From contig DAOPQD010000005.1 of the NCBI GenBank assembly GCA_035347995.1, positions 6,433 through 70,432 on the forward strand: a stretch of 64,000 bases of DNA, given 5' to 3'. The translations under genes were made by a program, and so were the position numbers. This document shows, piece after piece, positions 301 through 16,393 of the stretch (position 1 is its first letter; each line of letters starts with the position of its first letter). Below the pieces are notes generated by a model. The model was not told the DNA's origin. It did no database searches and saw only the letters and a program-made list of their open reading frames with translations. The DNA comes from Anaerolineae bacterium. Its GTDB lineage: Bacteria > Chloroflexota > Anaerolineae > B4-G1 > SLSP01.

Positions 301-678
301 TCAGGCTTTCCCGTACTGCTGCAGAATCTGCTTCACTTGTTTGATCAGCTCATCAGGCGCAAAGGGCTTGAGAATATACTGCGCCGCCCCGACGCTGAGC
401 CCTTCTTGAATTTCGCTTTCCTGGCCCTTGGCCGAAAGGAACACCACCGGCGTAGATTGCATCTCCGGTATCTGCATCAACGCGGCGCAGGCCTGATAGC
501 CGGTCATGCGCGGCATCCGCACGTCCATCAAGATGAGATCCGGCCTGACCTGCGGCGCCCTTTCCACCGCCTCGGCCCCGTTAGCCGCCAGTTCCACCTC
601 GAAACCGGCAAAGCGGAGGGTGAAGGCAATCAGCTCGCGAATATCACGTTCATCTTCGGCTACGAGGATCTTGACCAT
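301..678 (-). CDS. single-domain response regulator (CheY-like receiver)
   Basis: 125 aa. Motifs KILVAEDERDIRE, DLILMDVRMPRMTG, SAKG, ILKPF. Lies 3 nt downstream of the kinase stop. Confidence 0.9.
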   Translation of the reverse strand: MVKILVAEDERDIRELIAFTLRFAGFEVELAANGAEAVERAPQVRPDLILMDVRMPRMTGYQACAALMQIPEMQSTPVVFLSAKGQESEIQEGLSVGAAQYILKPFAPDELIKQVKQILQQYGKA

Positions 679-681
679 CCA

Positions 682-3600
682 TCACTCCTTGTTCCCGTCA
701 GCACTTTCTACCAGGCGGGAAATCTCCTCTCCCAACTCCTCCATCGAGAAAGGCTTCGTGACAAAACGTGTTGCCCCCAGCGCTTTCATCGCCGATGCGC
801 TCCCATTCCCCGGTTCGGCAAAACCCGTCATCACCACGACGGGGATGTTGGCCGTAGCGGGATGGCGCTTCAATTGTTGGAGCACCTCATAGCCATCCAT
901 GCCCGGCAACTTCAAATCCAGCAAAATCAGGGAGGGTGGCTGCTCCTGAGCCATCCGCAACGCCCGCTCACCGCGGGTCACCGTCCGCACCTGCAAGCCC
1001 TGCGCCCGCAAGGCCGTCCGCAGCAAAGTCAGGGTGTCCCGATCGTCATCTACTACCAGGACCGTGCCTTTGCCGGCCAATACCCGATTCACGACCTGCA
1101 ACAACCGGGCTTCATCCACCGGCTTGGTGAAATAATCCACCGCTCCCAATCGCAGCCCGCGATCCTGATCAAAAACCACTGAGACAATCACCACCGGGAT
1201 GGACGCCGTGTCGGGGTTGCGTTTGAGGAGCTGCAACACCTCAAAACCGTCCAGATCGGGGAGGCGGATATCCAGCGAGATCAAATCCGGCTGTTCCTGA
1301 CGCGCCAGGCGCAACGCCGCTTCCCCCGAGGCGGCCACCACAACCCGATGCCCCTCGTGTTCCAGCGTCAGCCGCAACATTTCGGCGACTTCGGGATCAT
1401 CCTCGACGACAAGAACGGTGGCCGCGGCATTCGCCCCCAATCCGGCAGGCGGACGCCCCACCGGCGCCGTCGCTTCCCCTTCCGCCAGCGGGAACGTCAC
1501 GGTGAAAATACTGCCCTCTCCCGGCTCACTTTCCACAGAAATTTGACCGCCGTGCATCTGCACCAGCGAGGCCGTGATCGCCAACCCCAGACCCGTGCCG
1601 CCCGCCTCCGACACCAGCGGGTTATCCACACGATAGAAGCGTGAGAAAATCCGGCTTTGATCCTCTGGCGAGATGCCAATGCCCGTATCGGCTACGGCGA
1701 TATGGAACATCTCCTCCCGGACATAAGCATAGATGGCGATCTCGCCGCCCAGCGGCGTGTATTTGAAGGCGTTTCCCACCAAGTTGGTGAGAATTTGCAC
1801 CATCCGATCGGGATCCCCGTAAGCCAACGGCAGGCCCTCCGGCAGAACGGTGCGGATCTGCAGCCCCTTCTCTTCAATCTTGGGCGTGAGTGTGACCGCC
1901 ACCTGCCGGATCAGCTCCGCCATGTCTACCGGCTGACAATGAAGCTCCACCTTGCCGCCCTCAATACGCGACATATCCAGCAAATCGTTCACCAGGCTCG
2001 TCAACCGATCGGTGTTGTTGCGAATGATGTTCAGGAATTGCACCTGCATGTCGGTGAGCGGGCCGGTAGCCCCCATCAACAGCAGATCCACATATCCCTT
2101 CACCGAGGTCATCGGCGTGCGCAACTCATGCGAAACCGTGGAGACAAACTCGCTCTTGGCGCGGTCGGCCTCCACCTCCGCCGTGATGTCGCGGAAGGCC
2201 GCCACGACCCCCAGGAACTCGCGGATCGGCGAGATGACCGGCGATAAATGCATACTCACGACTTGCCGCCCCAGTTCCAACCGTTCCGAGAGGAAATCAC
2301 CGCTCTGGTAGCTGCCCGGTTCCGCCTCCCACACCGCGATCTGCTCCAGCCAGCCGCGCACTTTGTCGCCGTAGAGCCCCAATACCTCACTCAGCGAACG
2401 TCCCATCGCCTGCGCGCGATTCAGCGTGAGGATGCGCTCCGCCGCCGCATTGAAGAGGATGATCTTGCCGCGAGCGTCTGCCACCAGCACGCCGTCGGCG
2501 ATGCCTTCGAGAATGGCCTGACTGCGAGCGGCTTCGTTCTGCTGGGTGCGCAGCATCGAGCCTACCCGCTCCGCCTGCTCGCGGATCAAACGATACAGCT
2601 CCGCGTTGTTGAGTGCATGACCGACCTGCACCGCGGCGGCTTCCACCAGCCGCTGATCCCCAGTGTCAAAGGCGTCCACCTCGGGCGAATGCAGAAAGAT
2701 CACGCCGACGGTTTCATCGCCGGCCGTGATCGGTACCGCAAGCACCGAGCGCGTGTCGTCCTCGATGGGAATCCAGCGCGCATCGAGACGCACGTCGGGC
2801 ACCATCGCCGATTGCCGGTTCGTGAGCACCCACCCCACCAGGCCCTCGTTGCGCTTGTAAGGCGCTCGCACACCCCCTGGCGGGACAGATTTGCCGCCCC
2901 CGACTGAGGCCCGTTGCTGCAAATGGCCCGTGTTCTGATCCAGCAGCAACACGGTCGCCCGCTCGGCGCGCACCGCGTCTTTGAGCATCGAGACCGTCTT
3001 GTGCAGCACCCGATCAATGTCGAGGCTGGCCACCAGGCCGGAGGCAATTTCGTACAGGATCGTCGAGCGGTCACGCTCAGTGCGCAGGCTATTCAGAGCT
3101 TCGGCCAGCTCCGCCGTGCGCTCTTCCACTCGCCGTTCCAGCTCCGCCGAGAAGTTCTTGACCTCCTCGAAGAGCTGCGCATTTTCCACCGCCACCGAGA
3201 TCTGGTCGGCGAGCATCGTCAACGTCGCCACCTGCAGCGGCTCGAGGATCCCGGCCTCGCGGCGTTCCGCGCTGAGCACTCCCACCGTGCGCCCGGCGAC
3301 CTGCAACGGCACAAGCAACGCCGACCCCACCGGCAACGGCCCCGGCGTGAAGCGCGGCTCGCCGCGCACGTCATCCAACGCCAACGGCATGCCGGATTCC
3401 ACGACGGCGCCCACCAGTCCTGCCCCCGGTTCCACCTGCAGCCCCTCGCCCAACAAACTCAGATCATACCCCGAGGACGCGCGCGGCGTCAGCGCCGTCT
3501 GACCCCGAGCTTGCAGGTACACCGTCGCATAATCATAGCCCAACAAATTGGTGACCGCTTGCGCCACCGTGTTGAGGACCAGCGAGAGGTCGAGTTTGGT

Positions 3601-5055
3601 CGTGATCGAGCGGCTCAGTTCGTTGAGCAACATCAGGGTGTTCAGCTGCAGCCGCAGGTTTTCCACCAGCCGGTTGTTGGCGATGACCACCCCAATCTGC
3701 GCCGCGAACAGCTCCAGGACTTCCAGGGAGGCCCGCGTCGGCGCCCGTCCGTCCAGAGGCTCGTCCACCGACAGATAGCCGACGGCATCGCCCTGCGGGC
3801 CATACAGCGGGACCAGCAACAGGTCCTGCGGATGCCACATGCCGGGGCGGCGAGCCTCAGGCAGGGCCACCTCCACCTCAAACACGTCCAGTTCCCCACG
3901 CCAGATGTGTTGCTGTTCAGCCGGAATGTAATAGCAGTTGCCGATGCGGAATTGCTCTTGCAGCAAGCGTGCGATCTGCGACCAGGGGCGGCGCACCTGC
4001 TTGAGGCGCTCCAAATCCACCAGGGGCATCCCTGCCCCGGCGACGCGCCGCACCATCTGCCCCTCAATCACGCTGATGAGCACGATCTCATAGCCGACCG
4101 CTTCTTGTGTGGCATACGCCATGTCCAACAGGGTCTCTTCGAGGGGGCGATCGGAACGCATCGTCCGCGTGGCTTCCAACAACAAGCGCATCTGCTCGGC
4201 GCGTTCCCGCACAAAGTTGCCCCGCAGCAGTTGCTCCTGATAGCGCCGATCGTTTCCCACCGCCAGCGCCGTTTCCGCCGCCAGCCCGTCCATGAAATCA
4301 ATCGCCGCCGGATTCAACGCCTGCGGTTGGCGGCAGTGCAGCACGATGGCCGCTGCCAGCTGCCCCTCATAAAAGACGGGCGACCACAATTCAGTCTGCA
4401 TCCCGGCCTGGTATGCCGGCGTCGGGTGCAGCTCGGCGAGATTGGGAATGTAGCGAGTGACTGGCTGCCGCATGAAAGCCACCAGCGAAGGGTCGGTCTC
4501 AGCATGGGCCAGTAGCTCCTCGTAAGCGGCGGAGGTGGCCTCCGGATAGCCCTGTGCCAGCGCCAGGGTAGGGAGCTCGTCGCGCCAGAGCCAGACCATC
4601 CCCGCATCCGCGTGAGTGAACCGCCGCGCTTCTTCCAGCACCAATTGGAGAATCCGCCCCAGTTCCAGCGTGCTGGCGATCTCCTGGGTGATGCGCCGCA
4701 AGGCGGCTTCCGAGGCAACGCGCCGCGCGACTTCCTGCTCCGCCGCCTGGGCGCGCCGGGCCTGCGCTTGCCATGCCGACGCCAGCGTAGCCCCGGCACC
4801 CGCTAAAAAGGCCGCCACGGCCCAATGCAACCACAGCGTCGGCGTGCGCCACACGGCCAACACCGCCAGCGCGAATAAAATGAGGGCCGTCAGCCAGACA
4901 CGCCGTCGCCCCTGCAGGCCCCCCAACACCGCCGGCAGGATCAACAGGTACAGCCCCACGGGCAGCGCGCCGCTATACAGCAGCAGCAACGCCAGCGCGC
5001 TGCTCAGCAACACCGCGCCCCATCCAGGCTGGAAAGAAGTCAACCGCTCACGCAT
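682..5055 (-). CDS. hybrid sensor histidine kinase (TM, multiple GAF, PAS, HisKA, HATPase_c, two receiver domains)
   Basis: 1457 aa. Hydrophobic N-terminus and repeated GAF-like blocks. H-box SHELRTPMTSV; N/G boxes NLVGNAFKYT, DTGIGI, GGTGLGL. Two C-terminal receivers (VLVVEDDPEV.., VLVVDDDRDT..). Confidence 0.9.
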   Translation of the reverse strand: MRERLTSFQPGWGAVLLSSALALLLLYSGALPVGLYLLILPAVLGGLQGRRRVWLTALILFALAVLAVWRTPTLWLHWAVAAFLAGAGATLASAWQAQARRAQAAEQEVARRVASEAALRRITQEIASTLELGRILQLVLEEARRFTHADAGMVWLWRDELPTLALAQGYPEATSAAYEELLAHAETDPSLVAFMRQPVTRYIPNLAELHPTPAYQAGMQTELWSPVFYEGQLAAAIVLHCRQPQALNPAAIDFMDGLAAETALAVGNDRRYQEQLLRGNFVRERAEQMRLLLEATRTMRSDRPLEETLLDMAYATQEAVGYEIVLISVIEGQMVRRVAGAGMPLVDLERLKQVRRPWSQIARLLQEQFRIGNCYYIPAEQQHIWRGELDVFEVEVALPEARRPGMWHPQDLLLVPLYGPQGDAVGYLSVDEPLDGRAPTRASLEVLELFAAQIGVVIANNRLVENLRLQLNTLMLLNELSRSITTKLDLSLVLNTVAQAVTNLLGYDYATVYLQARGQTALTPRASSGYDLSLLGEGLQVEPGAGLVGAVVESGMPLALDDVRGEPRFTPGPLPVGSALLVPLQVAGRTVGVLSAERREAGILEPLQVATLTMLADQISVAVENAQLFEEVKNFSAELERRVEERTAELAEALNSLRTERDRSTILYEIASGLVASLDIDRVLHKTVSMLKDAVRAERATVLLLDQNTGHLQQRASVGGGKSVPPGGVRAPYKRNEGLVGWVLTNRQSAMVPDVRLDARWIPIEDDTRSVLAVPITAGDETVGVIFLHSPEVDAFDTGDQRLVEAAAVQVGHALNNAELYRLIREQAERVGSMLRTQQNEAARSQAILEGIADGVLVADARGKIILFNAAAERILTLNRAQAMGRSLSEVLGLYGDKVRGWLEQIAVWEAEPGSYQSGDFLSERLELGRQVVSMHLSPVISPIREFLGVVAAFRDITAEVEADRAKSEFVSTVSHELRTPMTSVKGYVDLLLMGATGPLTDMQVQFLNIIRNNTDRLTSLVNDLLDMSRIEGGKVELHCQPVDMAELIRQVAVTLTPKIEEKGLQIRTVLPEGLPLAYGDPDRMVQILTNLVGNAFKYTPLGGEIAIYAYVREEMFHIAVADTGIGISPEDQSRIFSRFYRVDNPLVSEAGGTGLGLAITASLVQMHGGQISVESEPGEGSIFTVTFPLAEGEATAPVGRPPAGLGANAAATVLVVEDDPEVAEMLRLTLEHEGHRVVVAASGEAALRLARQEQPDLISLDIRLPDLDGFEVLQLLKRNPDTASIPVVIVSVVFDQDRGLRLGAVDYFTKPVDEARLLQVVNRVLAGKGTVLVVDDDRDTLTLLRTALRAQGLQVRTVTRGERALRMAQEQPPSLILLDLKLPGMDGYEVLQQLKRHPATANIPVVVMTGFAEPGNGSASAMKALGATRFVTKPFSMEELGEEISRLVESADGNKE

Positions 5056-5123
5056 CTTTTCCCATCAACCCCAAACAATTTTTACGTCCCAATAGGAAAA
5101 TATTGCAAAAAAAGTCCACGGAC

Positions 5124-6017
5124 TTAAGATTTCCGCGCCCGTCGGCGCGCCTCGGCTGCCGCCTCCGTCACCTCACGAATGTCAGTGAAAGGGCCCTCGT
5201 CGGCTGAAAGCATGCCGATCTGCAGGTGCATCAAGGGCACATGCTTTTCCTCACCCTTGCTGTCATGCACCACCAGGTATCCCTGCATTCGGGTCATGAA
5301 GTCGTAGTGCGTCCCCACATTCTCCTCGAAGCGCCGTTCGAGGTCCTCTTTGAGCTGCGGCATGATCGCTTTGCGGGTAATGACAATGAAGTTATCGCCT
5401 CCGATATGACCGATGAAATCCTCCGGATAGCCGAGACGCTCCACGGCCTCATTGAGCACCAGCGCCGTGAAGCGCAAGACCTCCTCGCCCGCCACGAAGC
5501 CATACACCTCGTTAAAGGCGTCCAGCCCCGGAATGCCGATGTAGAGGATGCCCCAATCCGCCAGGCGCAGCAGCTGCCGCAATTGTTGCTCGATCAGCCG
5601 GCCGCTCGGCAGGCCGGTCGTCGGGCTCGTCAGACTCTCGATCTCGGCGCGCTTGATGGTGTTCCGCACGCGCAACCGCAGCTCTTCCACGTCGAAGGGC
5701 TTGGTGATGTAGTCATCGGCACCCAACTCCAGGCCGTGGATTTTGTCGCTGCGTTCGTCTTTCTGCGTGAGGAAAAGAATGGGGATATGACTGGTACGCA
5801 GGTTGGTACGCAGCTGCCGGCAGACTTCATACCCGTCAATGTCGGGAAGCATGATGTCCAGGACGATCACATTGGGGAGCAACTGTCGCGTTGCCTCCAG
5901 CGCATCCTGTCCCCGCGGCGCAACATGCACTTCGTACTCCAGGGATCTGAAATACAGCTGTAACATGTTGGAGATGTCGGGATCGTCTTCCACTACCAGA
6001 ATACGGCCTTCACTCAT
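5124..6017 (-). CDS. response regulator with GGDEF-type output domain (signature degenerate: GGDNF)
   Basis: 297 aa. Receiver motifs ILVVEDDPDI, LDIMLPDIDG, ITKPF. The C-terminal cyclase-fold domain has IGGDNFIV where GG(D/E)EF is expected. Confidence 0.85.
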   Translation of the reverse strand: MSEGRILVVEDDPDISNMLQLYFRSLEYEVHVAPRGQDALEATRQLLPNVIVLDIMLPDIDGYEVCRQLRTNLRTSHIPILFLTQKDERSDKIHGLELGADDYITKPFDVEELRLRVRNTIKRAEIESLTSPTTGLPSGRLIEQQLRQLLRLADWGILYIGIPGLDAFNEVYGFVAGEEVLRFTALVLNEAVERLGYPEDFIGHIGGDNFIVITRKAIMPQLKEDLERRFEENVGTHYDFMTRMQGYLVVHDSKGEEKHVPLMHLQIGMLSADEGPFTDIREVTEAAAEARRRARKS

Positions 6018-6070
6018 GTCCTACCTCCTGCCCCGCGAATCCACAGTGGGTCGGGGGTGCCTTTGTGACC

Positions 6071-7147
6071 TCAGGTTGCTCGCGCTTGGGCCTTGACGCG
6101 CGCGATGGTCGCGTCAGGCAGCACCTGCTCGAAACTGCGCAGAGCCGCCAGGCGGAAGCCGTGCTTTTCCGCCACGGCGTCTATGTCCTCCATCTGCTCA
6201 AGCGTTAAGTCTTTGCCCAAAGAATAGTCCTCGAAGCGCCCTTCCAGCGCCAGGGTCATGGTCTCTGCCATACATCCAAAGGTCAACGTCGGCGGCAGCC
6301 CATAATCGAAGCCGAAATCTACCGCGCCGGGCACTTCCGCCAATCCGCCATCGAAGACAAGCACGTCATCTCGCGCCTGCGCCACCTGCCAGGAGACGTC
6401 CCTCGGACGCGAAACATCACAGACCACCGCTCCGCGACGCAAGTGCTCCGGACGCACCAGGTTCCCCCCCGCGCTGGTCACGGTGATCACCACTTCCGCC
6501 TGTTGAATATCGGCGACTTCTGTAGAAAGCCGCACCTCAGGCGCCCCGCCGGCCCGCAGTCGCTCGCCGAGGGGCTCCAGGTGTCGCAACTCACGTCCGA
6601 CCAACAGCACCGAGCCGAATTCACGCGCCAGACTTTGCGTCACGATGCTACCGATAGCCCCGGCCGCGCCGACTACCGCCAGGGTCACGGCGGCGGGATC
6701 GTACTCCATCCGCCGCACCGCCTCACGGGTCGCGCGAATGGCCAGCGCCGCGGTGTAGCTGTCGCCGGAAGTGACGGCCAGATCCAGAGCGCGGGCGATC
6801 GTCACCCCGCCATCTCCCACGACCGAGGTGTAAGCCCCTAACCCCAGGATTTGCGCCCCCAGGCGCTCCGCCATCCGTCCCGCGGCGATGATTTTACGGT
6901 ACACCTCCGTCGGCGGCAGCTGCAACATCCGCTGCACGGTGTAGGGCACGGCGAGCAGCCACCCCTCGATCTCTTTGCCCGTCGCCGCCGAGCGCACCCC
7001 CGTGACATGGGAGATGTACACCGGCGGCCAAAAACGCGAGGCAAAATCAATCACCGGCTCAGGCAACATCCGCCCCAGCAGGGGATACTTGCGTGCCACA
7101 TCGCGTTTGGCCGACAGCGGATGAATGATAAAGGCAAACGCATCCAT
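6071..7147 (-). CDS. acyl-ACP reductase (Aar)-family / shikimate-dehydrogenase-like NAD(P) oxidoreductase
   Basis: 358 aa. By-eye alignment to my recollection of cyanobacterial Aar: FAFIIHP, LGLGAYTSVV, Rossmann VVGAAGAIGS, FGCMAETMTLALEG (Cys aligned with the Aar catalytic Cys), LEQMEDIDAVAEKHGF. Confidence 0.7.
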   Translation of the reverse strand: MDAFAFIIHPLSAKRDVARKYPLLGRMLPEPVIDFASRFWPPVYISHVTGVRSAATGKEIEGWLLAVPYTVQRMLQLPPTEVYRKIIAAGRMAERLGAQILGLGAYTSVVGDGGVTIARALDLAVTSGDSYTAALAIRATREAVRRMEYDPAAVTLAVVGAAGAIGSIVTQSLAREFGSVLLVGRELRHLEPLGERLRAGGAPEVRLSTEVADIQQAEVVITVTSAGGNLVRPEHLRRGAVVCDVSRPRDVSWQVAQARDDVLVFDGGLAEVPGAVDFGFDYGLPPTLTFGCMAETMTLALEGRFEDYSLGKDLTLEQMEDIDAVAEKHGFRLAALRSFEQVLPDATIARVKAQARAT

Positions 7148-7161
7148 AAATTTTTCGTGTT

Positions 7162-8415
7162 TTAACGAGGATACAATCTTGGATGTGCGATCTCCGGATT
7201 CGGCAGCTTCCAGTGATCGCTGTCCTCGTAAGTAATATTCCGATCAATGACCCGGCGTTCAGGCGAGGCAAACAGGATCACATCGGACTCAATCATCCGC
7301 GCCGGGAAGATGACCATCCCCGAGCCAATGCGGACATGATGTCCTACCGCCGAACCGATCACCGACAGGCCGGTGTTTTCCAGGCGTCCGCCGAAGTGCG
7401 ATCGAATGGGAATAGTTGGGACCAGGTTGAAATCGGTGAAGGTGTTGCCCGCGCCGATGAACGTCTCCCGTCCCACGACGCACATCTGCAAGCAGGTATT
7501 CTGCGCCACCATGCAATCTTCCATCAGCACCGTTTCGAACAGCGAGGCGCGAAAAGGCAGGAACGTCCCGTCGCCGACGACGCTCAACAGCATCTGACAC
7601 CCGTGAGAGATATTCACATTGTCACCCAACACGCAGTTGGCGATCATGGCTCCCGCCCCAATCGTGACGTTGTTACCGATGATCGTCGGCCCCTGGATGA
7701 TTGCCGTAGGATCAATCTGACAATTCTTACCCACCTGCACCAGGGCAGAGCTCCCCAGCAGTTGCCGGCGCTCGAGCATCGCCTGCCACAACAAGCGCAG
7801 GTTCAGCCCCAAGTCCTTTTCCAGAGAGCGCTCGAAACGCGCCCCAATGGAAAAAATGCCAAACATGACGTTGGCAAAAAGAATGTGGATCCAATGCTCG
7901 ATAGAAAGGAACGCCTTGGTAGGCAGCTGATACACCAAATCGCCGTAGACGTTGGACATGTGAGTCGGCACATGGTAGTATCCCGCTTCTCGCGGCTCGG
8001 TGTGCATCACCAGCGGGCGCACCACCGGCTCGATGCCGTAGGGATAATACCACAAGTCCGCCACATACACGTTGCCCTGACGCCGAATGCCCCGCTGCAA
8101 ATAGATCGCATGTTGCGAAATGGCGGGGTCATCCAGCTCGAAGGCCACCTGACAGGCTTTCCCCAGGCTACGCGCCTGCACGATAAATTCGTCAATGAAG
8201 GGCTGATCGAAATAAAGATTCTCACGGTACACGAGCGTCTCGACGCGGTCATGCCCGATCTCGGAAAGAGAATCCACCTCCAACTCTTCGGTCGTGTAGG
8301 GTACCAGGATGTCCCGTTGATGAAGCCACAACGGCTTACACAGCACGCTCAGATCGCGCGCGGGCTCGTTGAACGGCGGTATTTTGCGTTTTTCGCGCAG
8401 GATGATTTTACGCAC
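7162..8415 (-). CDS. hexapeptide-repeat (left-handed beta-helix) protein with uncharacterised N-terminal half
   Basis: 417 aa. The C-terminal half shows imperfect [LIV]-G-x4 hexads (IIGNNVTIGAGAMIANCVLGDNVNISHGC..). I could not recognise the N-terminal ~210 aa. Confidence 0.65.
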   Translation of the reverse strand: MRKIILREKRKIPPFNEPARDLSVLCKPLWLHQRDILVPYTTEELEVDSLSEIGHDRVETLVYRENLYFDQPFIDEFIVQARSLGKACQVAFELDDPAISQHAIYLQRGIRRQGNVYVADLWYYPYGIEPVVRPLVMHTEPREAGYYHVPTHMSNVYGDLVYQLPTKAFLSIEHWIHILFANVMFGIFSIGARFERSLEKDLGLNLRLLWQAMLERRQLLGSSALVQVGKNCQIDPTAIIQGPTIIGNNVTIGAGAMIANCVLGDNVNISHGCQMLLSVVGDGTFLPFRASLFETVLMEDCMVAQNTCLQMCVVGRETFIGAGNTFTDFNLVPTIPIRSHFGGRLENTGLSVIGSAVGHHVRIGSGMVIFPARMIESDVILFASPERRVIDRNITYEDSDHWKLPNPEIAHPRLYPR

Positions 8416-8470
8416 CGAGCTGCTTCCTTATCCACCCAGCGTTACGGAACCCACCCAGCGTTACGGACGA

Positions 8471-9136
8471 TTACACCCCAGGCGTTCGCCCAATCTGGAA
8501 CGTGCAGGCGGGGTCCCCTAAGGCGATGCACGTCACTTCTGCAACCTCGAAGGGCTTGCCCCCACTTGCCCAATATAGCGTCTCCGCCAGCAATCCTGTC
8601 ATCAGAGAACAGACCGGATAGCTCGCCCGCCAGCCCCAACAAAAGCCGCACTGCTTCATGATCCAGAAGTAGCTCTCCGCCGTCTCCGACAATTGCACCT
8701 GCTGCGCCGCATAACGGTTGAGGATCTCCGCCAGGACCTCCAGGCTCAGGCGCACCCGAAAAGTGAGCGGCAGAATACGGAACATCACGTCGGCGACGCT
8801 CAGCAAGCCGCCAAAATCCTGGACGCCATACCGAAACGCGACACGCCCCGCGCGCAGGCAGAGCTGTTGCCCGCTGTGCGCCCCGTGCAATTCATCTATC
8901 GCCGTGAGCAGCTGCGCCACCGCCGTAAACGACAAGGCCGGCTCGAAGTTGGTCGGCAATGGCCGCTCGCCCAGCTCCGGAAGACGGGCCGCCGTCAACA
9001 CGGCCTTCAGGCTGTTAGCTCCGAGCACTTCCTCCAGCGACAGGAGCAAAATGCGTACGAATTTATTGGGAAAGTACCCCTCCGCGTGCGGGTCGTCACC
9101 CGCGAGCTCCGCCTCAAACCGCTGCGCCATCGTCAC
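8471..9136 (-). CDS. V4R (4-vinyl-reductase-type) domain protein
   Basis: 221 aa. C-terminal pattern CGFCWG..VCSLMTGLLAE..EVTCIALGDPACTFQI is typical of V4R domains. 4-nt overlap with the upstream hydrolase gene. Confidence 0.7.
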   Translation of the reverse strand: MTMAQRFEAELAGDDPHAEGYFPNKFVRILLLSLEEVLGANSLKAVLTAARLPELGERPLPTNFEPALSFTAVAQLLTAIDELHGAHSGQQLCLRAGRVAFRYGVQDFGGLLSVADVMFRILPLTFRVRLSLEVLAEILNRYAAQQVQLSETAESYFWIMKQCGFCWGWRASYPVCSLMTGLLAETLYWASGGKPFEVAEVTCIALGDPACTFQIGRTPGV

Positions 9137-9918
9137 TGCAGATCCAGGAAATCCTGCACAACCTGGTTAAAATGGTCTTTTTCATCCAGCATGGGAAAAT
9201 GCCCGGAGCCTTCAAAGTAATGGATCAGCGCATGTTTGACTCCGGCCTGCAACACGTTGCCCTGATGGGGATCCACGATATTGTCCTTGACCCCATAAAC
9301 GCCCATGACCGGGATGCGCAGCTCTTGTAAGCGAGGGCGCAAATCGGTAAAGCGCAAATCGCGGATGCTATCCGAAAAAGAGTTCATCGTGGTGCTGGAT
9401 AAGTCCTTTTGAAACATCTCGTACCAGGTGCGCCAGTCGCGGGCGTAAAACCGCGAGGCGATCCGCATCCCAAAAGCGAAAGCGCGCGGGAACCGATACA
9501 GCAATCCGGCAATGCGCCGGTTACCGGCCAGTTTGAGCGGCACCGCCAGCCCTGAACCGACCACGGGGGAGCCTACCACCGCCACACGCGAGACCCGCTG
9601 CGGATACATCAACGCCAGGCTCAGCGAGACGGTCCCCCCCATCGAGTGCCCCATCACCGGCGCACGCTCCACACCCAGGCGTTCCATGAACTGATTCACC
9701 ATCTCCACATATTCGCCGACGGTGAATGCCCCGTGTTTGGCCGACTCGCCAAAGCCCCAGAAATCAAGCGCGTAGGTCTTGTACCTGGAAGCCAACAGCT
9801 GCATCGTGGGAAGCCAATAGCTCCACGAACCCAACCAGCAATGCAGCAAGATCACCGGCTTGCCGCGTCCGATGGCTTCATAGTGGACGATTCCACGATC
9901 GGTGACAATGGCTACCAT
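9133..9918 (-). CDS. alpha/beta-fold hydrolase
   Basis: 261 aa. HCWLGSW oxyanion region, nucleophile elbow GHSMGG, C-terminal GSGHFP. Paralogue of the partial gene at 1..281. Confidence 0.85.
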   Translation of the reverse strand: MVAIVTDRGIVHYEAIGRGKPVILLHCWLGSWSYWLPTMQLLASRYKTYALDFWGFGESAKHGAFTVGEYVEMVNQFMERLGVERAPVMGHSMGGTVSLSLALMYPQRVSRVAVVGSPVVGSGLAVPLKLAGNRRIAGLLYRFPRAFAFGMRIASRFYARDWRTWYEMFQKDLSSTTMNSFSDSIRDLRFTDLRPRLQELRIPVMGVYGVKDNIVDPHQGNVLQAGVKHALIHYFEGSGHFPMLDEKDHFNQVVQDFLDLQ

Positions 9919-10011
9919 GACATCAATTCCGGCCTCTCCCCAGTGCTTCTATGATAACATACCTCTTGCGGCCGAAGCAAAAGGGGCCGTTGCGGTTCGG
10001 TTAAAAAACGG

Positions 10012-10551
10012 TTACTCTTCGGTCTGATCCATGACCTCGAGGATTGAATACAGGAGTTCCAGCAACACTTGCTTGACGCTCTCACGGTCGCGCGCCACGC
10101 ACGGGACGACCTTGACGCCCGGCTCAATCTTGAGCACGATGCGCAAGTCATCAGCCGGCCAGGCATCCGGTATGTCCTGCTTGTTGGCGGCGACGATGTA
10201 CGGCACAGGCGAATAGGCGCGGAAAGTGTCTAAAATGCGCTGCGCCTCGCGGAAGGTCTCCGGCCGGGTGCTGTCCACCATCACCACAAAGCCCAGCATC
10301 CCCTCAGAGAGGATTTCCCACATAAAATCGAAACGGCGCTGTCCCGGCGTGCCAAACAAATAGAGGATCAATTCCTCATCAATGGTAATGCGACCGAAGT
10401 CCATCGCCACCGTCGTCGCGTCCTTAATACGCTCGGCCCGGCTGGAGATCTTCCTTTCGGTCGAAACGACATCAATTTCACTCACACTCTGGATGAATTC
10501 GGTCTTCCCAGAAGCAAAGGGCCCCGTCACGACGATCTTCAGTGTTTGCAT
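10012..10551 (-). CDS. small Ras-like GTPase (conservon CvnD / COG2229-type ATP/GTP-binding protein)
   Basis: 179 aa. P-loop GPFASGKT, switch II FGTPGQ, NKQD specificity motif. Confidence 0.85.
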   Translation of the reverse strand: MQTLKIVVTGPFASGKTEFIQSVSEIDVVSTERKISSRAERIKDATTVAMDFGRITIDEELILYLFGTPGQRRFDFMWEILSEGMLGFVVMVDSTRPETFREAQRILDTFRAYSPVPYIVAANKQDIPDAWPADDLRIVLKIEPGVKVVPCVARDRESVKQVLLELLYSILEVMDQTEE

Positions 10552-10554
10552 GGA

Positions 10555-11415
10555 CTAGAGCTCCCGAATGCGATCAATGAGCTTGTGAATCAAGCTGCGC
10601 TTGACGTCAGGGCGACGCGCCCCCATCATGGCCTCAGGACGTTCCTTCTCCTCCGGCCGAACGCTCCGCGGCTCCCCGACCGTGGCTTCAGCCATCTGCC
10701 TCGGCGGACGAATGATTTCGACCAACCCCGCTTGCAGCAGGCCATAGACGATCTTGCGAATCTGAAATTCGCTCATGTTGTTGTACTGTGCGATCTGCCG
10801 GATGGCGTTGCGCGGATTGACGAAGGAAATCACCCGCCACTCCTCCACAGTCAGGTTCACATCCCGCAACGGGGTGTTGGGCTTCTCGGCAAATTTCAGC
10901 GCCACGTCGAGGGAAGGGATCTCTTCCTGCAGCCGTTCCCACTCTTTGAGCCGCCGGCTCCCCTCCATAATGACGTTTTCCAGGGCAATCGAGCTCACCA
11001 GCTTGCCCTGAATGGGCAACTCGTTCGGCTCGAAGCGGAACGTCCCCGCATTCCAGGAAAACACGCTGTAAGCCGTGTCCGTGATGTGTTGGCGCACGAG
11101 CTGCACCAGTTCCTGCTGCTGGACATGTCCCGACTGGATAAGCATCAGCGCCACATCCCGGTCGGGTTTGCTACCCATGTTGGTCGCAATAACGCGCGCC
11201 TGCTCCGCCGTCAACTTACCCGCTTTTTGTAGCAAAGGCAACAACGCGAGTTCCTGTCCATCCGCCGCCGCGTACACTAACGCTCCCTCGCGGAAACACA
11301 GGTAGGCCTTGCTTTGCGCACCCTCCAGGTAGAGCGTCCCCGTTTTACGGGCCAGGTTGATCAGGTTCAGCAGTTGTGTGATGCCGAAATCCTTCAAGTT
11401 GCCTTTTAGCGCCAT
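10555..11415 (-). CDS. DUF4388 (PATAN-like) domain protein with C-terminal wHTH-like region
   Basis: 286 aa. N-terminus LKGNLKDFGITQLLNLINLARKTGTLYL is the DUF4388 signature as I remember it. The C-terminal RQIAQYNNMSEFQIRKIVYGLLQAGLVEI looks like a winged helix. 3-nt gap to the GTPase gene. Confidence 0.7.
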   Translation of the reverse strand: MALKGNLKDFGITQLLNLINLARKTGTLYLEGAQSKAYLCFREGALVYAAADGQELALLPLLQKAGKLTAEQARVIATNMGSKPDRDVALMLIQSGHVQQQELVQLVRQHITDTAYSVFSWNAGTFRFEPNELPIQGKLVSSIALENVIMEGSRRLKEWERLQEEIPSLDVALKFAEKPNTPLRDVNLTVEEWRVISFVNPRNAIRQIAQYNNMSEFQIRKIVYGLLQAGLVEIIRPPRQMAEATVGEPRSVRPEEKERPEAMMGARRPDVKRSLIHKLIDRIREL

Positions 11416-11480: not shown

Positions 11481-11508
11481 ATTATAACTTGCTTCTAAGA
11501 GTCAGCAA
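11481..11508 (-). promoter_or_regulatory. candidate sigma70-type promoter for the DUF4388-GTPase gene string
   Basis: Minus strand reads TTGCTG-16 nt-TATAAT (perfect -10), about 65 nt upstream of the 11415 start and overlapping the recN 3' end. Confidence 0.3.
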
Positions 11509-13458: not shown

Positions 13459-13659
13459 GCTGAAAGAATCAAATTTGTAATACGTACCGCCTTTGCCCCC
13501 TATCCCCTTCCCCCCGCGCGCGCGGGGGGAAGGGGACTTTTTTGCCCCCTTATTTTTTCTCCCCCTCCCCAGTGCGTGCACTGGGGAGGGGCAAAAACTA
13601 CCGGTCACAAAGGTTCGTCCATTGCCGTCTGGATAGTTGACGCCAGGTTGAACAGTTAC
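13459..13659 (+). repeat. modular GC-hairpin repeat, copy A (about 200 nt)
   Basis: Colinear with 47836..48085. Shared blocks: GCTGAA.., CTTTGCCCCCTATCCCC, hairpin CCCCTTCCCCCCGCGCG..GGGGGGAAGGGG + T-run, CCCCTTATTTTTTCTCCCC, a CTCCCC..GGGGAG hairpin, ..ACAAAGGTTC.TCCAT.GCCGTC..GCCAGG.TGAACAGT.AC. Confidence 0.8.
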
Positions 13660-13969: not shown

Positions 13970-15271
13970 GTGGAACACAGTTCCCGTATTGCGGGATTTT
14001 ATAATCTGAGCGGCGCTGAACGTCTGCAGCTGGTTGCCGACTGGGCCGCGCTGAATGCCGAAGAGCAAGCCGTGCTCTCCGGCATTTTGGGCCTGGATGT
14101 GGAACACGGCGCGGCCATGATCGAGAACGTTATCGGGATCTACAGCCTGCCACTCGGCATCGCCGCCAATTTCACGGTGAACGGCCGCGACGTGCTGGTG
14201 CCCATGGTGATCGAGGAGCCGTCGGTCGTCGCGGGGGCCTCGCTGGCTGCCCGACTGGCGCGCGCCGGCGGTGGCTTCAGCGCAAGCACCGCCGAGCCGG
14301 TGATGATCGGACAGCTGCAGGTCATGGGCCTTGACGATCTCGAGGCCGCGCAGGCGCGCCTTCTGGCGGAGAAAGCGGCACTCCTGGCCCTGGCCCATGC
14401 CGTGGACCCTGTCCTCGCGCAGCTGGGCGGCGGCGCGCAAGACCTGGAAGTCCGCCTCCTGCCGGAGACGCCCGCCGGTCCCATGCTCATCGTGCACCTG
14501 CTCTACGACGTGCGCGACGCGATGGGCGCCAATGCTGTCAACACGGCCTGTGAACGCCTCGCGCCGGAAATCGCTCGGCTTACCGGCGGGAGAGTCTTCC
14601 TGCGCATTCTGAGCAACCTGGCGGATCGTCGCCTGGCGCGCGCCGGGGTCGTCATCCCCGAAAGCGCGCTGGCGTTTGATCACTTCAGCGGCGAAACGGT
14701 CGCCCTCGGCATCGAACAGGCCTGGGCCTTCGCTGCCGCCGATCCCTACCGCGCCGCGACGCACAACAAAGGCATCATGAATGGCGTGGATGCGGTCGTG
14801 CTCGCTACGGGGAACGACTGGCGCGCCATCGAAGCGGGGGCCCATGCCTACGCCGCCCGCGAGGGGCGCTACACGAGCCTCAGCACGTGGCAGCGCGATG
14901 GGAAGGGCAACCTCGTCGGCAGCCTGGAGCTGCCCCTGGCGTTGGGCATCGTCGGCGGGGCGACGCGCGTGCATCCGACGGCGCGGGTCGCGCTCAAAAT
15001 CCTGGGGGTGCAGACTGCCCGCGAGCTGGCGGAGATCGTCGCCAGCGTGGGACTGGCGCAGAATCTCGCCGCGCTCCGCGCCCTGGCGACAGAGGGCATC
15101 CAGAAGGGACACATGAGCCTGCACGCCCGGCAGGTCGCCATGGCAGCCGGCGCTACGGGAGAAGCCATCGAGCGCGTCGCCGAGGCCATGATCGCCGAGG
15201 GCGTTATCCGCGTGGATCGCGCCACGGCCTGGTTAGAGCATTTTTACCGCGAGGAGCACGGCGCCGCGTGA
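13970..15271 (+). CDS. mvaA: hydroxymethylglutaryl-CoA reductase, class II
   Basis: 433 aa. MIENVIGIYSLPLGIAANFTVNGRDVLVPMVIEEPSVVAGAS closely matches my recollection of the Pseudomonas mevalonii MvaA block. GTG start. Confidence 0.9.
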   Translation: MEHSSRIAGFYNLSGAERLQLVADWAALNAEEQAVLSGILGLDVEHGAAMIENVIGIYSLPLGIAANFTVNGRDVLVPMVIEEPSVVAGASLAARLARAGGGFSASTAEPVMIGQLQVMGLDDLEAAQARLLAEKAALLALAHAVDPVLAQLGGGAQDLEVRLLPETPAGPMLIVHLLYDVRDAMGANAVNTACERLAPEIARLTGGRVFLRILSNLADRRLARAGVVIPESALAFDHFSGETVALGIEQAWAFAAADPYRAATHNKGIMNGVDAVVLATGNDWRAIEAGAHAYAAREGRYTSLSTWQRDGKGNLVGSLELPLALGIVGGATRVHPTARVALKILGVQTARELAEIVASVGLAQNLAALRALATEGIQKGHMSLHARQVAMAAGATGEAIERVAEAMIAEGVIRVDRATAWLEHFYREEHGAA

Positions 15272-15319
15272 GGCGTCGCACCGTGTCCGGCGCGCCGAAA
15301 CTGGAATCAGGAGGTCATT

Positions 15320-16384
15320 GTGGCAGAACGTTGGACCATGCATCCACAACGCCCGGTGGGAATTGTCGGTTATGGCTCGTACGTGCCCATGTACCGCCTG
15401 CCCAATGCGGAAATCAGCCGCATCTGGGGCAGCGGCGATGAGGGGGGGCCCATCAAGGAAAAGGCCGTCGCCGGATTGGATGAGGACACAATCACCATTG
15501 CGATCGAGGCCGCGCGCAACGCTTTGAGTCGCGCCGGCATTGCTCCCGAAGACATCCGCGCGGTCTGGATAGGCAGCGAATCGCATCCCTACGCCGTCAA
15601 ACCGAGTTCGACGGTCGTGGCTGAAGCGCTCGGCACGTCCCCCTATCACCTGGCGGCGGACCTGGAATTCGCCTGCAAGGCCGGCACCGAGGCGCTGCAG
15701 GCGGCCATCGGCCTGGTCGGCTCTGGCATGGCGCGCTACGCCCTGGCCATCGGCGCGGACACGGCGCAAGGGCGGCCCGGCGATGCGCTGGAATACACCG
15801 CTGCTTCCGGCGGGACCGCCTTCATCGTAGGGCCGGCGGAGGAGGCGCTCGCGGTGCTGCGCGGGTCGCTCTCTTTCGTCACCGATACGCCCGACTTCTG
15901 GCGGCGCGCCTATCAACATTATCCCAGCCACGGCGGACGCTTTACCGGCGAACCGGCTTACTTCCACCACATTCAATCCGCTGCTGAGGCGCTGCTGGAG
16001 GAGATGGGATTGGGGCCCCAGGATTTCACCTACGCCATCTTCCATCAGCCCAACGTCAAATTCCCGGAGCGGGTAGGCAAGCGCCTGGGCTTCACCAAAG
16101 AGCAGCTGCAGCCGGGTCTGATCAGCAACCGCATTGGGAACACCTACGCCGGCGCGGCGGTGACGGGCCTCTCGGCGACGCTGGATGTCGCCAAAGCGGG
16201 GGATCGCATCCTCATGGTCAGCTTCGGCTCCGGCGCCGGCTCCGACGCTTTCGTGTGGGACGTCACGGGGGCGCTGGAAGAGCGGCGACATCACGCGCCG
16301 CTGGTACAAGACTATATCGCCCGCCGCGTGGAAATTGACTACGGTCTGTATGTCCGCTATCGCGGCAAACTGCTGGTGAAGTAG
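15320..16384 (+). CDS. HMG-CoA synthase, archaeal-type
   Basis: 354 aa. [14 protein letters not shown], condensing-enzyme core ([17 protein letters not shown]). GGAGG lies 5 nt before the GTG at 15320. Confidence 0.85.
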
Positions 16385-16393
16385 GAGGCACGG

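Follow-up and report, generated by a model that had tools for sequence, protein, structure and literature searches.

Gene organization of the block

The subject of this analysis is a row of ten genes at the beginning of a 64,000-nt stretch of DNA from an Anaerolineae bacterium (GenBank assembly GCA_035347995.1, contig DAOPQD010000005.1, positions 6,433 to 70,432 of the forward strand; the whole stretch is called the window below). All ten genes lie on the minus strand, and the row reaches from the window start to position 11415. In the direction of transcription they code for a PATAN protein, an MglA-family small GTPase, an alpha/beta hydrolase (hydrolase 1), a V4R protein, a left-handed beta-helix (LbH) protein, a thioester reductase, a protein with a receiver (REC) and a degenerate GGDEF domain (REC-GGDEF), a hybrid histidine kinase, a single-domain REC protein and a second alpha/beta hydrolase (hydrolase 2). 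Counted from the window start to the PATAN gene, the gaps between them are 19, 3, 68, 53, 14, 55, -4, 93 and 3 nt, that is, 3-93 nt or a 4-nt overlap, and recN, which is co-directional with the row, lies 79 nt from the PATAN gene. A preliminary description of this DNA had reported ten minus-strand genes with tiny gaps or overlaps, and this is borne out; the end that it gave for the row (11415) also stands, but its start at position 301 leaves out the tenth gene, that of hydrolase 2.

The first gene (10555-11415, minus strand, as are all features of the row) encodes a protein of 286 aa with a PATAN (DUF4388/PatA_N) domain over residues 4-160 (PF14332, 103.6 bits against a cut-off of 25 bits) and a MarR-like winged helix-turn-helix (wHTH). 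It is followed by the gene for the GTPase (10012-10551; 179 aa; Pfam matches ATP_bind_1, Ras and Arf) and by a 93-nt gap (9919-10011) that holds conserved non-coding blocks and a hairpin. The gene for hydrolase 1 (9133-9918; 261 aa; Abhydrolase_1, 2.6e-30) overlaps by 4 nt that for the V4R protein (8471-9136; 221 aa), after which come the genes for the GlmU/ST0452-like hexapeptide/LbH protein (7162-8415; 417 aa; Hexapep, LbH_EIF2B and GMPPB_C matches) and for the AAR/PigE-N-type thioester reductase (6071-7147; 358 aa; Shikimate_DH in Pfam). The row continues with the genes for the REC-GGDEF protein (5124-6017; 297 aa; Response_reg 1.4e-29, GGDEF 2.2e-10), the hybrid histidine kinase (682-5055; 1457 aa; domains from Pfam) and the single-domain response regulator (301-678; 125 aa; Response_reg 2e-30). 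It ends with the gene for hydrolase 2, a probable pseudo-hydrolase, which is cut by the window start and represented by its N-terminal 93 codons (<1-281); the full protein, taken from the close relative L004, has 262 aa. Every domain call of the preliminary description was confirmed by Pfam, and its estimate that the two hydrolases are paralogues of about 50-60% identity agrees with the 51% found over 92 aa.

Conservation of gene order in related genomes

The LbH protein, whose N-terminal half is family-specific and without a Pfam model, served as search anchor. A genome scan with a profile from a nine-sequence LbH alignment, run on one genome per GTDB species, detected LbH relatives in at least 527 species-level genomes, and all locus counts given below refer to the best 80 of these. 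Across the 80 genomes the LbH proteins are 56-88% identical to that of the window. The 120 best LbH clusters showed 64-100% identity over the full length, and an exhaustive search of 1.8 billion representatives returned only 51 LbH clusters with E <=1e-30. Among the 80 best loci, 79 come from Anaerolineae, Anaerolineales, Thermoflexales, Caldilineaceae, unclassified Chloroflexota metagenome-assembled genomes (MAGs) or entries named 'uncultured bacterium'. One locus, L041 (QMZE01000099.1), comes from a MAG labelled 'Archaeoglobales archaeon'; its 5-kb contig carries PATAN, GTPase, hydrolase, V4R and LbH genes, whose proteins are 47-77% identical to those of the window, and it is most likely mis-binned Chloroflexota.

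Two independent maps of the loci, one obtained by tblastn of all window proteins and the other from open reading frames (ORFs) and families, agreed in the order and placed all genes on one strand: PATAN, GTPase, hydrolase 1, V4R, LbH, reductase, REC-GGDEF, kinase, REC and hydrolase 2. When only loci with enough flank were counted, the genes were in place in 84-97% of them: PATAN in 52/54, the GTPase in 61/63, hydrolase 1 in 63/69, V4R in 61/73 and the reductase in 63/72; the REC-GGDEF gene immediately followed that of the reductase (or the LbH gene) in 66/69, and a kinase lay downstream in 56/59. A REC orthologue (at least 55% identity) follows the kinase in 45 of 59 loci. Outside the block the flanks vary by lineage, with recN, a DUF3048 protein, an amidase and ABC-2 permeases among them, and the block boundaries are exactly the PATAN gene and hydrolase 2.

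The full gene order was still present at 52% LbH identity, and order and strand persist though the proteins have diverged to 45-60% identity. In the comparison with Thermoflexus the identities were 74% for the GTPase, 65% for the LbH protein, 56% for both the reductase and the hydrolase and 51% for the PATAN protein. Because the same order recurs in 80 species-level genomes with diverged LbH proteins, the arrangement is far beyond chance. The preliminary description had named a comparison of synteny in related genomes as a check on its proposal, and in these 80 Chloroflexota genomes the order is kept, at the rates per gene given above.

Some loci depart from the common order. Thermoflexus-type loci keep PATAN, GTPase, hydrolase, LbH and reductase genes and have no V4R, kinase or receiver genes, and three loci (L071, L085 and L089) keep LbH, reductase, REC-GGDEF and kinase without the GTPase pair. 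In L048, L053 and L055 hydrolase 1 and the reductase are both lost while V4R, LbH, REC-GGDEF and kinase stay, a joint loss which suggests that these two enzymes function together. Co-occurrence with the LbH gene is 95-97% for REC-GGDEF, kinase and GTPase, and lower for the reductase and hydrolase 1, at the fractions already given. In one Caldilineaceae locus (L084) the V4R gene has been relocated to a position directly after hydrolase 2, at the far end of the block and still inside it; a weak partial V4R tblastn match was seen at the same offset in L079. In L057 and L083 a gene for a SAM-dependent methyltransferase of ~250 aa (Methyltransf_19/LCM-like) lies between the REC-GGDEF and kinase genes.

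A distant LbH clade (26-28% identity) has a short-chain dehydrogenase/reductase (SDR) gene directly upstream of the LbH gene in L090/L091 and L095 and a gene for a HisKA_7TM sensor kinase directly downstream in L090/L091 and L094. The SDR reductase is of the 3beta-HSD/epimerase/NAD_binding_4 type and is non-homologous to the reductase of the block, so that non-homologous proteins have in this clade restored part of the association of reductase, LbH protein and kinase. No other observation hints as strongly that an LbH-reductase pair and a sensor kinase share one small molecule. Other distant LbH relatives were found in PKS/MatE, radical-SAM, GT2/LPG_synthase_TM or PEMT/DUF1295 contexts.

Junctions, promoter and the gap between GTPase and hydrolase 1

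Median gaps in the related loci are 3 nt between PATAN and GTPase, 90 nt (up to 588) between GTPase and hydrolase 1, which is the widest internal junction, -4 nt between hydrolase 1 and V4R, 9 nt between V4R and LbH and again between LbH and reductase, 19 nt between reductase and REC-GGDEF, 42 nt between REC-GGDEF and kinase, 9 nt between kinase and REC, and 22 nt between REC and hydrolase 2. Overlaps of 4 nt were found repeatedly, at several junctions, and apart from the gap between GTPase and hydrolase 1 the spacing is like that of an operon.

A candidate sigma-70-type promoter was read upstream of the PATAN gene of the window at 11481-11508 (minus strand). It consists of TTGCTG (11508-11503) and TATAAT (11486-11481), and the 16-nt spacer between them contains the recN stop codon. 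This site was left out by a generic promoter scan because its -35 element matches only 3/6 positions. In the related loci the PATAN gene is preceded by a region of ~200 nt, and in 46 of 59 the motif TTGnnn-N16-18-TAnnnT occurs no more than 200 nt ahead of the gene, compared with 5/33, 2/20 and 1/14 in internal gaps of similar GC content and with 6% of random 200-nt windows. The site, already put forward in the preliminary description, is thus real sequence and has comparable motifs in most relatives.

The gap between GTPase and hydrolase 1 contains a terminator-like hairpin at 9984-9962. It was aligned, as window positions 9919-10011, with its equivalents from L008-L020. Two blocks are nearly invariant in 12 relatives, GTAACCnTTTTTTAACCGAAnTGCAACGGCC, directly after the stop codon, and TGTGGTATGAT, which is extended -10-like, and a conserved block of the gap reads AACCGnnnnnnAACCG...TTGCAA. 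A candidate 10-bp helix, GCCTCTTTTC/GAAAAGAGGC, brackets TGTGGTATGAT and is 73.7% paired, versus 44-57% when slid. RNAalifold gave no consensus structure for the gap. No Rfam family reached its gathering score anywhere in the 64-kb window, and within the block no credible match appeared even when E values up to 1 were allowed. The element may act in the DNA, as internal promoter plus operator, or in the RNA, as a hairpin or anti-Shine-Dalgarno element, and the block may be one operon with an internal control point in this gap.

The GTPase, the PATAN protein and the Roadblock genes

The best solved relative of the GTPase is MglA of T. thermophilus (6.7e-9). Its motifs are GPFASGKT at G1, Thr-Thr (DATTVAMDFG) at G2, GTPGQ (LFGTPGQRRF) at G3 and NKQD at G4. 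No other protein of the block is as conserved (mean column conservation 0.83 in 68 orthologues, in which the G3 column is kept). MglA groups 2-5 are defined by GTPGQ and the lack of an arginine finger (Wuichet and Sogaard-Andersen, PMC4316618); the GTPase of the block has GTPGQ as G3 and, at G2, Thr and no intrinsic Arg finger. Membership of group 1, that of the polarity proteins MglA/SofG, is ruled out, since the protein has neither TVPGQ nor an intrinsic Arg finger. Group 5 MglA is present in Chloroflexi, with variable neighbourhoods and 'occasionally' beside PATAN genes, and a link of PATAN genes to those of MglA and MglB has already been published (PMC4316618).

The C-terminal profile of the PATAN protein matches the MarR regulator 7kua (E 1.5e-5), and Pfam gave weak matches to MarR_2 (0.028) and Rrf2 (0.07) and none to DUF742 at E up to 10. 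The C-terminal wHTH that the preliminary description had seen in the DUF4388 protein therefore holds, as a MarR-like domain, but its reading as a possible trace of the classical conservon partners found no support in a DUF742 match. No REC domain was found in the protein, unlike in PatA-type PATAN-REC regulators. PATAN genes in the neighbourhood of MglA/MglB genes were reportedly noted by Makarova in 2006.

Neither a Roadblock ORF nor a Roadblock tblastn match was found in the window, in agreement with the preliminary description, which had listed Roadblock/LC7 as absent. Across the relatives, however, this absence fails: a Roadblock/LC7 (MglB-like) gene coding for 122-152 aa lies between GTPase and hydrolase 1, ~1.2-2.0 kb upstream of the LbH gene, in 8 of the 80 loci (L043, L045, L047, L058, L062, L077, L078 and L084). 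One type of these proteins matches Robl_LC7 at 7e-18, and a second type, at 9e-4, stays under the family cut-off of Pfam. An MglB-type partner belongs to the ancestral or variable repertoire of the block, and most lineages do without it.

The V4R and LbH proteins

The V4R protein matches PF02830 with 37.8 bits (cut-off 31) and this, together with a fold match in Foldseek and a cysteine cluster, upholds the V4R call of the preliminary description. Its AlphaFold model (pLDDT 85.6) is a single domain, for which Foldseek returned H-NOX, the phenol sensors PoxR/MopR and Bet3/TRAPPC3 with a probability of 1.0, the top matches being H-NOX with TM 0.65-0.70 on the target. The family profile gave only a marginal match in PDB (MJ1460), and the fold is assigned from the structure model. 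Cys163, Cys203 and Cys211 are invariant, and Cys176 is present in at least 90% of the sequences. A like cluster binds Zn in PoxR and Thor-TRAPPC3, and palmitate is bound by Bet3/TRAPPC3 (PMC10933270). Among the (nearly) invariant columns of the V4R alignment there is no His, and a YxSxR motif was not found; an H-NOX heme sensor was rejected on these grounds, the likeness being in fold only. An exact look-up of the V4R protein of the window gave no record, probably because of a different start-codon call.

For the beta-helix protein, which the preliminary description had taken to be of acyltransferase type, the result was different: it is GlmU/ST0452-like and lacks the GxGxR signature. The family profile matches ST0452 (5z09/2ggo) with E 4.4e-16 (profile 225-375, chain residues 244-379), which makes the LbH domain one of the amino-sugar-1-phosphate acetyltransferase type, and matches the N-terminus of ST0452 weakly at positions 10-47 (strand-loop-helix). 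Foldseek returned ST0452, GlmU, GMPPA/B and eIF2B at 2.6e-7 or weaker with an AlphaFold model that is poor (pLDDT 60) and was used for architecture-level matches only. At the N-terminus, upstream of the ERLEPIT of ST0452, the protein reads ILREKRKIPPF where the enzymes carry the glycine-rich loop GGxGxR, and Pfam NTP_transferase matched neither the window protein nor 10 distant relatives. Because GxGxR is gone and NTP_transferase matches none of the relatives examined, the N-terminal domain is predicted to have kept the fold of a nucleotidyltransferase but not its activity, like that of GMPPA and eIF2B gamma/epsilon.

In the beta-helix itself, Phe288, which is invariant in 42 close relatives, stands opposite His308 of ST0452, which we take to be the catalytic residue of that enzyme, close to a 16-residue gap in the alignment; most of the family has kept His359. 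Many NCBI records (P0004, P0008, P0013 and others) call LbH orthologues 'multidrug transporter', a propagated annotation error, since neither a membrane segment nor a transporter domain is present in the LbH protein.

The reductase and the two hydrolases

The reductase matches the PigE model over positions 2-355, its N-terminal half (E 1.9e-61), and, more weakly, cyanobacterial acyl-ACP reductase (AAR); its matches in PDB are 4ppm (PigE, 6e-36) and the AAR structure 6jzq (1.2e-22). Cys292, in a GCMAET motif that aligns with GCMAET of PigE, is invariant in 63/63 orthologues, and the NAD(P)-binding GxxGxxG is conserved as GAAGAIG. The acyl-accepting cysteine is Cys296 in PigE and Cys294 in AAR, and in the PigE N-domain family the product of thioester reduction is an aldehyde (PMC8341465). 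With TIGR04058 (AAR) the protein scores 98.9 bits, the equivalog cut-off being 449.7. The Aar-type reductase of the preliminary description was thus correct as to family and catalytic cysteine, but not as an equivalog: the protein is a member of the AAR/PigE-N thioester reductase family and not an AAR orthologue. The ten genes include neither an aldehyde-deformylating oxygenase (ADO) nor a fused aminotransferase, and the same holds for the 80 loci; given the lack of ADO and the score under the AAR cut-off, an AAR-ADO alkane pathway was rejected.

Among solved structures, hydrolase 1 comes nearest to hydrolases of the MhpC/BphD type. Its triad consists of Ser92 (63/63, one further sequence being gapped), Asp212 (64/64) and His240 (64/64), and hydrolase 1 is accordingly predicted to be a catalytically intact serine hydrolase. 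In hydrolase 2 the position of the nucleophile is occupied by Gly in 19, Ala in 13, Thr in 3 and Ser in 1 of 36 orthologues, while Asp is kept in 35/36 and His in 36/36; the window protein reads G-H-G versus G-H-S in hydrolase 1. Because it is without the serine nucleophile, hydrolase 2 cannot act as a serine hydrolase. The preliminary description had assigned both hydrolases to production of the small molecule; the triad of hydrolase 1 agrees with an enzyme, whereas in hydrolase 2 the nucleophile is gone in 35/36. The alpha/beta hydrolase fold includes both ligand-binding pseudo-enzymes and His/Asp-dyad enzymes, and hydrolase 2 is predicted to be either the one or the other.

The kinase and the response regulators

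The kinase consists of an N-terminal hydrophobic segment and, in Pfam, four GAF stretches, a PAS domain, HisKA, HATPase_c and two REC domains. Its hydrophobic residues, 8-76, leave no room for an outside domain, and without an extracytoplasmic domain the kinase must read a cytoplasmic or membrane signal. In the relatives it varies in length from 1209 to more than 2988 aa. The longest annotated kinase, that of L089 (5553 onward), has many extra GAF-family matches, and its neighbour genes are constant in length.

The phospho-acceptor Asp54 of the REC-GGDEF protein is invariant (68/68). Its GGDEF motif is GGDNF in the window and GGD[D42/N18/E3]F in the family, and the GGDEF profile match covers only positions 5-105 of 161; this bears out the degenerate GGDEF regulator of the preliminary description, and the protein is, from its motif, not expected to make c-di-GMP. 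No DNA-binding domain was found by Pfam in either the REC-GGDEF or the 125-aa REC protein. Gene order, conservation, domain identities and the state of the catalytic residues are thereby established directly for the block.

A candidate signalling operon

We tentatively read the block as one operon-encoded signalling machine, vertically inherited and probably largely co-transcribed in Anaerolineae-type Chloroflexota. It would produce or trim a small, hydrophobic, acyl-derived ligand, which the V4R protein, the pseudo-hydrolase and the GAF domains would then sense. The ligand may be of lipid nature, and the block may both make and sense it. Three parts would make up this machine. The first would be a nucleotide switch, formed by the MglA-family GTPase and the PATAN-wHTH protein, with a Roadblock/MglB-like protein in some lineages. 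The second, for ligand handling, would comprise the serine hydrolase, the V4R protein as Zn-Cys binding protein, the GlmU-like LbH protein and the thioester reductase. The GAF/PAS hybrid kinase, the REC protein, the REC-degenerate-GGDEF protein and the nucleophile-less hydrolase would form the third, a phosphorelay.

Chemistry, binding partners, direction of signal flow and final output in the cell are all inferred from these parts. An acyl-thioester would be converted to a small hydrophobic product (an aldehyde or a derivative) by the reductase together with hydrolase 1 and perhaps the LbH protein. This product or its precursor would be bound by the V4R protein, by the pseudo-hydrolase and/or by the cytoplasmic GAF/PAS array of the kinase, and binding would set the kinase activity and the nucleotide state of the GTPase. 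Output through protein-protein contacts of PATAN, REC and the dead GGDEF is probable, because only the PATAN protein has a DNA-binding-type domain; output through its wHTH is possible. The predicted fold of the V4R protein, which equals that of hydrophobic-ligand sensors (PoxR/MopR and Bet3) and of H-NOX, supports the ligand-reading step. The reading as a whole draws on the kept gene order amid variable flanks, the short junctions with promoter-like motifs concentrated ahead of the PATAN gene, the parallel divergence of the proteins, the intact catalytic residues of reductase and hydrolase 1 and their joint loss in three loci, the V4R gene that moved within the block, the reductase and kinase genes beside distant LbH relatives, and a kinase without an extracytoplasmic domain.

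A number of observations weigh against a ligand-based signalling operon. The LbH domain resembles amino-sugar-1-phosphate acetyltransferases, not acyl-ACP acyltransferases, and the LbH protein and hydrolase 2 look partly or wholly non-catalytic, so that the 'pathway' may consist of only two enzymes; an enzyme that consumes the aldehyde (ADO, aminotransferase or alcohol dehydrogenase) was not found in the block. The reductase is missing in 9/72 loci, V4R in 12/73 and hydrolase 1 in 6/69 while GTPase, LbH and kinase stay, so that none of the three by itself is indispensable to the signalling core. The Thermoflexus-type loci keep the GTPase pair and the enzyme-like genes without the kinase. The LbH gene is present in every locus by construction, the 80 loci having been picked by LbH similarity, and there may be two transcription units, as a -10-like box is conserved in the gap that separates GTPase and hydrolase 1.

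Alternative explanations

The main rival is an operon for envelope or lipid-glycan modification, which reverses the logic: the enzymes would be the regulated output and act on an envelope precursor, and the kinase relay and the GTPase would tune the time or the place of this modification along the filament. The LbH domain, closest to the ST0452/GlmU amino-sugar-1-phosphate acetyltransferases, speaks for it, as do the membrane anchor of the kinase and the distant LbH relatives that lie beside genes of nucleotide-sugar-type SDR epimerase/dehydratase, GT2/LPG_synthase_TM, PEMT/DUF1295 and PKS/MatE. The LbH protein, however, cannot make a nucleotide sugar, as the nucleotidyltransferase signature is missing, and no glycosyltransferase, flippase or transporter was found in the block in any of the 80 loci. 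The LbH gene is also more faithful to REC-GGDEF, kinase and GTPase than to the reductase and hydrolase 1, and five of the ten genes are signalling genes, out of proportion for the regulation of two or three enzymes. We regard this explanation as rather unlikely.

A module for polarity, type IV pili or motility, in which the GTPase and the PATAN protein would switch or localise a motility or division machine, in the manner of MglA and the PatA-type regulators of cyanobacteria, and the enzyme-like proteins would mostly be scaffolds or sensors, is unlikely. The GTPase family, the eight loci with Roadblock/MglB-like genes and the published PATAN-MglA-MglB gene association (PMC4316618) are in its favour, and PATAN is an output domain that binds PilB1/PilC in Synechocystis (bioRxiv 10.1101/2021.06.11.447907). 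It would also fit that three enzyme-like domains are degenerate and that the regulators have no DNA-binding outputs. On the other hand, the GTPase is of the GTPGQ type without an arginine finger and not a polarity-controlling group 1 MglA, no pilus, gliding or division gene was found in or next to the block in the window and the 80 loci, the catalytic residues of the reductase and hydrolase 1 are intact, and the PATAN protein has a wHTH, not a REC domain.

The block could also be merely a conserved neighbourhood, in which the PATAN-GTPase pair, the enzymes and the two-component system are adjacent by descent and functionally uncoupled. Sub-blocks that occur alone (L071, L085 and L089 without the GTPase pair, Thermoflexus without the kinase) and the wider gap between GTPase and hydrolase 1, with its conserved -10-like box, would agree with this. 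Against it, order and strand are kept at 84-97% per gene in proteins of 45-60% identity while the surroundings are reshuffled, 4-nt overlaps recur at several junctions, the V4R gene was relocated yet stayed inside the block, and distant LbH relatives have found kinase and reductase partners from other families. Because the surroundings are so thoroughly reshuffled, a purely historical neighbourhood is improbable.

We give still less credence to the block as a bacterial counterpart of TRAPP/Ragulator-type GTPase platforms, in which the V4R protein would be a ligand-gated exchange factor, a GTPase-activating protein or a docking platform. Its acyl ligand would then be loaded or removed by the reductase, the hydrolase and the LbH protein, like the palmitate of Bet3, and the kinase relay would report the same ligand; Roadblock joins V4R in some lineages.

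The actinobacterial conservon is defined by four components (CvnA kinase, CvnB Roadblock, CvnC DUF742, CvnD GTPase), and we rejected as next to impossible that the block is its Chloroflexota orthologue. The block does share the GTPGQ motif at G3 common to MglA groups 2-5, CvnD included, a kinase in the same block, a small wHTH-like module beside the GTPase and, in eight related loci, a Roadblock gene. Three of the four defining components, however, do not agree: the window has no Roadblock gene and no DUF742 match, the kinase is a GAF/PAS hybrid ending in two REC domains, not of the CvnA type with its C-terminal LPxR extension, and there are response regulators, of which the conservon has none (PMC4316618), and five extra genes for enzymes or ligand-binding proteins.

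An anti-phage defence system was rejected too, PADLOC having given only weak REC-domain matches. The same applies to a mobile island: the LbH protein has no plasmid match, GC content and composition are even and the neighbours are housekeeping genes, so that the 'island' of the preliminary description is not to be understood in the mobile sense.

Neighbouring sequence and significance

Beside recN and divergent from it lies a mevalonate-entry cluster (13970-17551, plus strand) with genes for HMG-CoA reductase, an ACP_syn_III_C/HMG-CoA-synthase-like protein and thiolase. In the close relative L004 (707-4733) this cluster is followed by a gene for a DUF35-type zf-ChsH2/OB protein, and the arrangement resembles the archaeal-type one of thiolase, HMGCS and DUF35. 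Between recN and the HMG-CoA reductase gene, the 15-bp GC-rich palindrome TCCCCTTCCCCCCGCGCGCGCGGGGGGAAGGGGA with a T-run (13503-13536) is the best terminator-like site of the region.

Anaerolineae are among the most abundant filamentous bacteria of sediments, digesters and activated sludge, and their signalling is almost unstudied. The occurrence of LbH relatives in at least 527 species-level genomes and the unusual conservation of the proteins indicate a core cellular role. For group 5 MglA, for which the available survey names no partner set (PMC4316618), the operon supplies a fixed list of candidate partners, namely the PATAN-wHTH protein, the V4R protein, the pseudo-GlmU protein, the thioester reductase and the hybrid kinase. 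A small GTPase is here in genetic linkage with a V4R/Bet3-fold protein, and some lineages add Roadblock. If the comparison with TRAPP/Ragulator-type platforms were true, the block would offer a tractable bacterial operon in which to study how V4R and Roadblock folds became coupled to small GTPases. Several enzyme folds have apparently been recruited to signalling here, as judged from the nucleophile-less hydrolase, the dead nucleotidyltransferase and the dead GGDEF.

Comparison with known systems

Alpha/beta-hydrolase-fold proteins are known as signalling partners, as in RsbQ-RsbP and in the plant receptors D14/KAI2 and GID1. The block recalls the RsbQ/D14 type in that a hydrolase-fold gene comes right after that of a PAS/GAF signalling protein and one copy is non-hydrolytic and receptor-like, but no specific sequence relationship was seen, and hydrolase 1 is nearest to the MhpC/BphD type. 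With GMPPA and eIF2B gamma/epsilon the LbH protein shares the architecture of an inactive nucleotidyltransferase with an LbH domain, and its best Pfam LbH matches are LbH_EIF2B and GMPPB_C; no catalytic paralogue, however, is encoded beside it.

The AAR-ADO and PigE systems have a reductase of the same family, with the same catalytic cysteine and Rossmann motif, and in them the family members pass the aldehyde product to a partner enzyme. The block differs in having neither ADO nor a fused aminotransferase, in its signalling neighbours and in a reductase score far under the AAR cut-off. H-NOX/HnoK pairs resemble it in that a stand-alone single-domain protein of the same fold class is encoded in an operon with a kinase and a GGDEF-type protein; the V4R protein, in contrast, showed a Zn-type Cys cluster but neither a heme-ligating His nor YxSxR, and its gene is not adjacent to that of the kinase. 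In the TRAPP system, as here, a V4R/Bet3-fold protein (Bet3/TRAPPC3, which binds an acyl chain) is linked to a Ras-superfamily GTPase (Rab), the link here being genetic and including Roadblock in some loci. Against this likeness, the block has no longin subunit, V4R is dispensable in 12/73 loci, and the similarity is in fold only, at 12-13% identity.

The conservon (MglA group 2) is similar in that the genes for a GTPGQ-type GTPase, a sensor kinase and small accessory proteins stand together and the GTPase would probably serve as output or switch of a kinase-linked pathway. It differs from the block, which has a PATAN-wHTH protein instead of DUF742, Roadblock only in 8/80 relatives, two extra receiver proteins, a kinase with two receivers and a five-gene ligand-handling set.

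The link between PATAN and MglA is itself already known (PMC4316618; bioRxiv 10.1101/2021.06.11.447907). In a literature coverage that is incomplete, we found no description of the fixed ten-gene combination, nor one of a link of V4R, a pseudo-GlmU protein, a thioester reductase and a hybrid kinase to PATAN-MglA. The MglA/MglB polarity switch has a GTPase of the same family, and the PATAN gene directly upstream of the GTPase gene (3-nt gap) and the occasional Roadblock gene recall it, but the GTPase of the block lacks TVPGQ and the intrinsic Arg finger. Finally, the neighbourhoods of group 5 MglA are variable (PMC4316618), whereas that of the GTPase described here is fixed and much larger.

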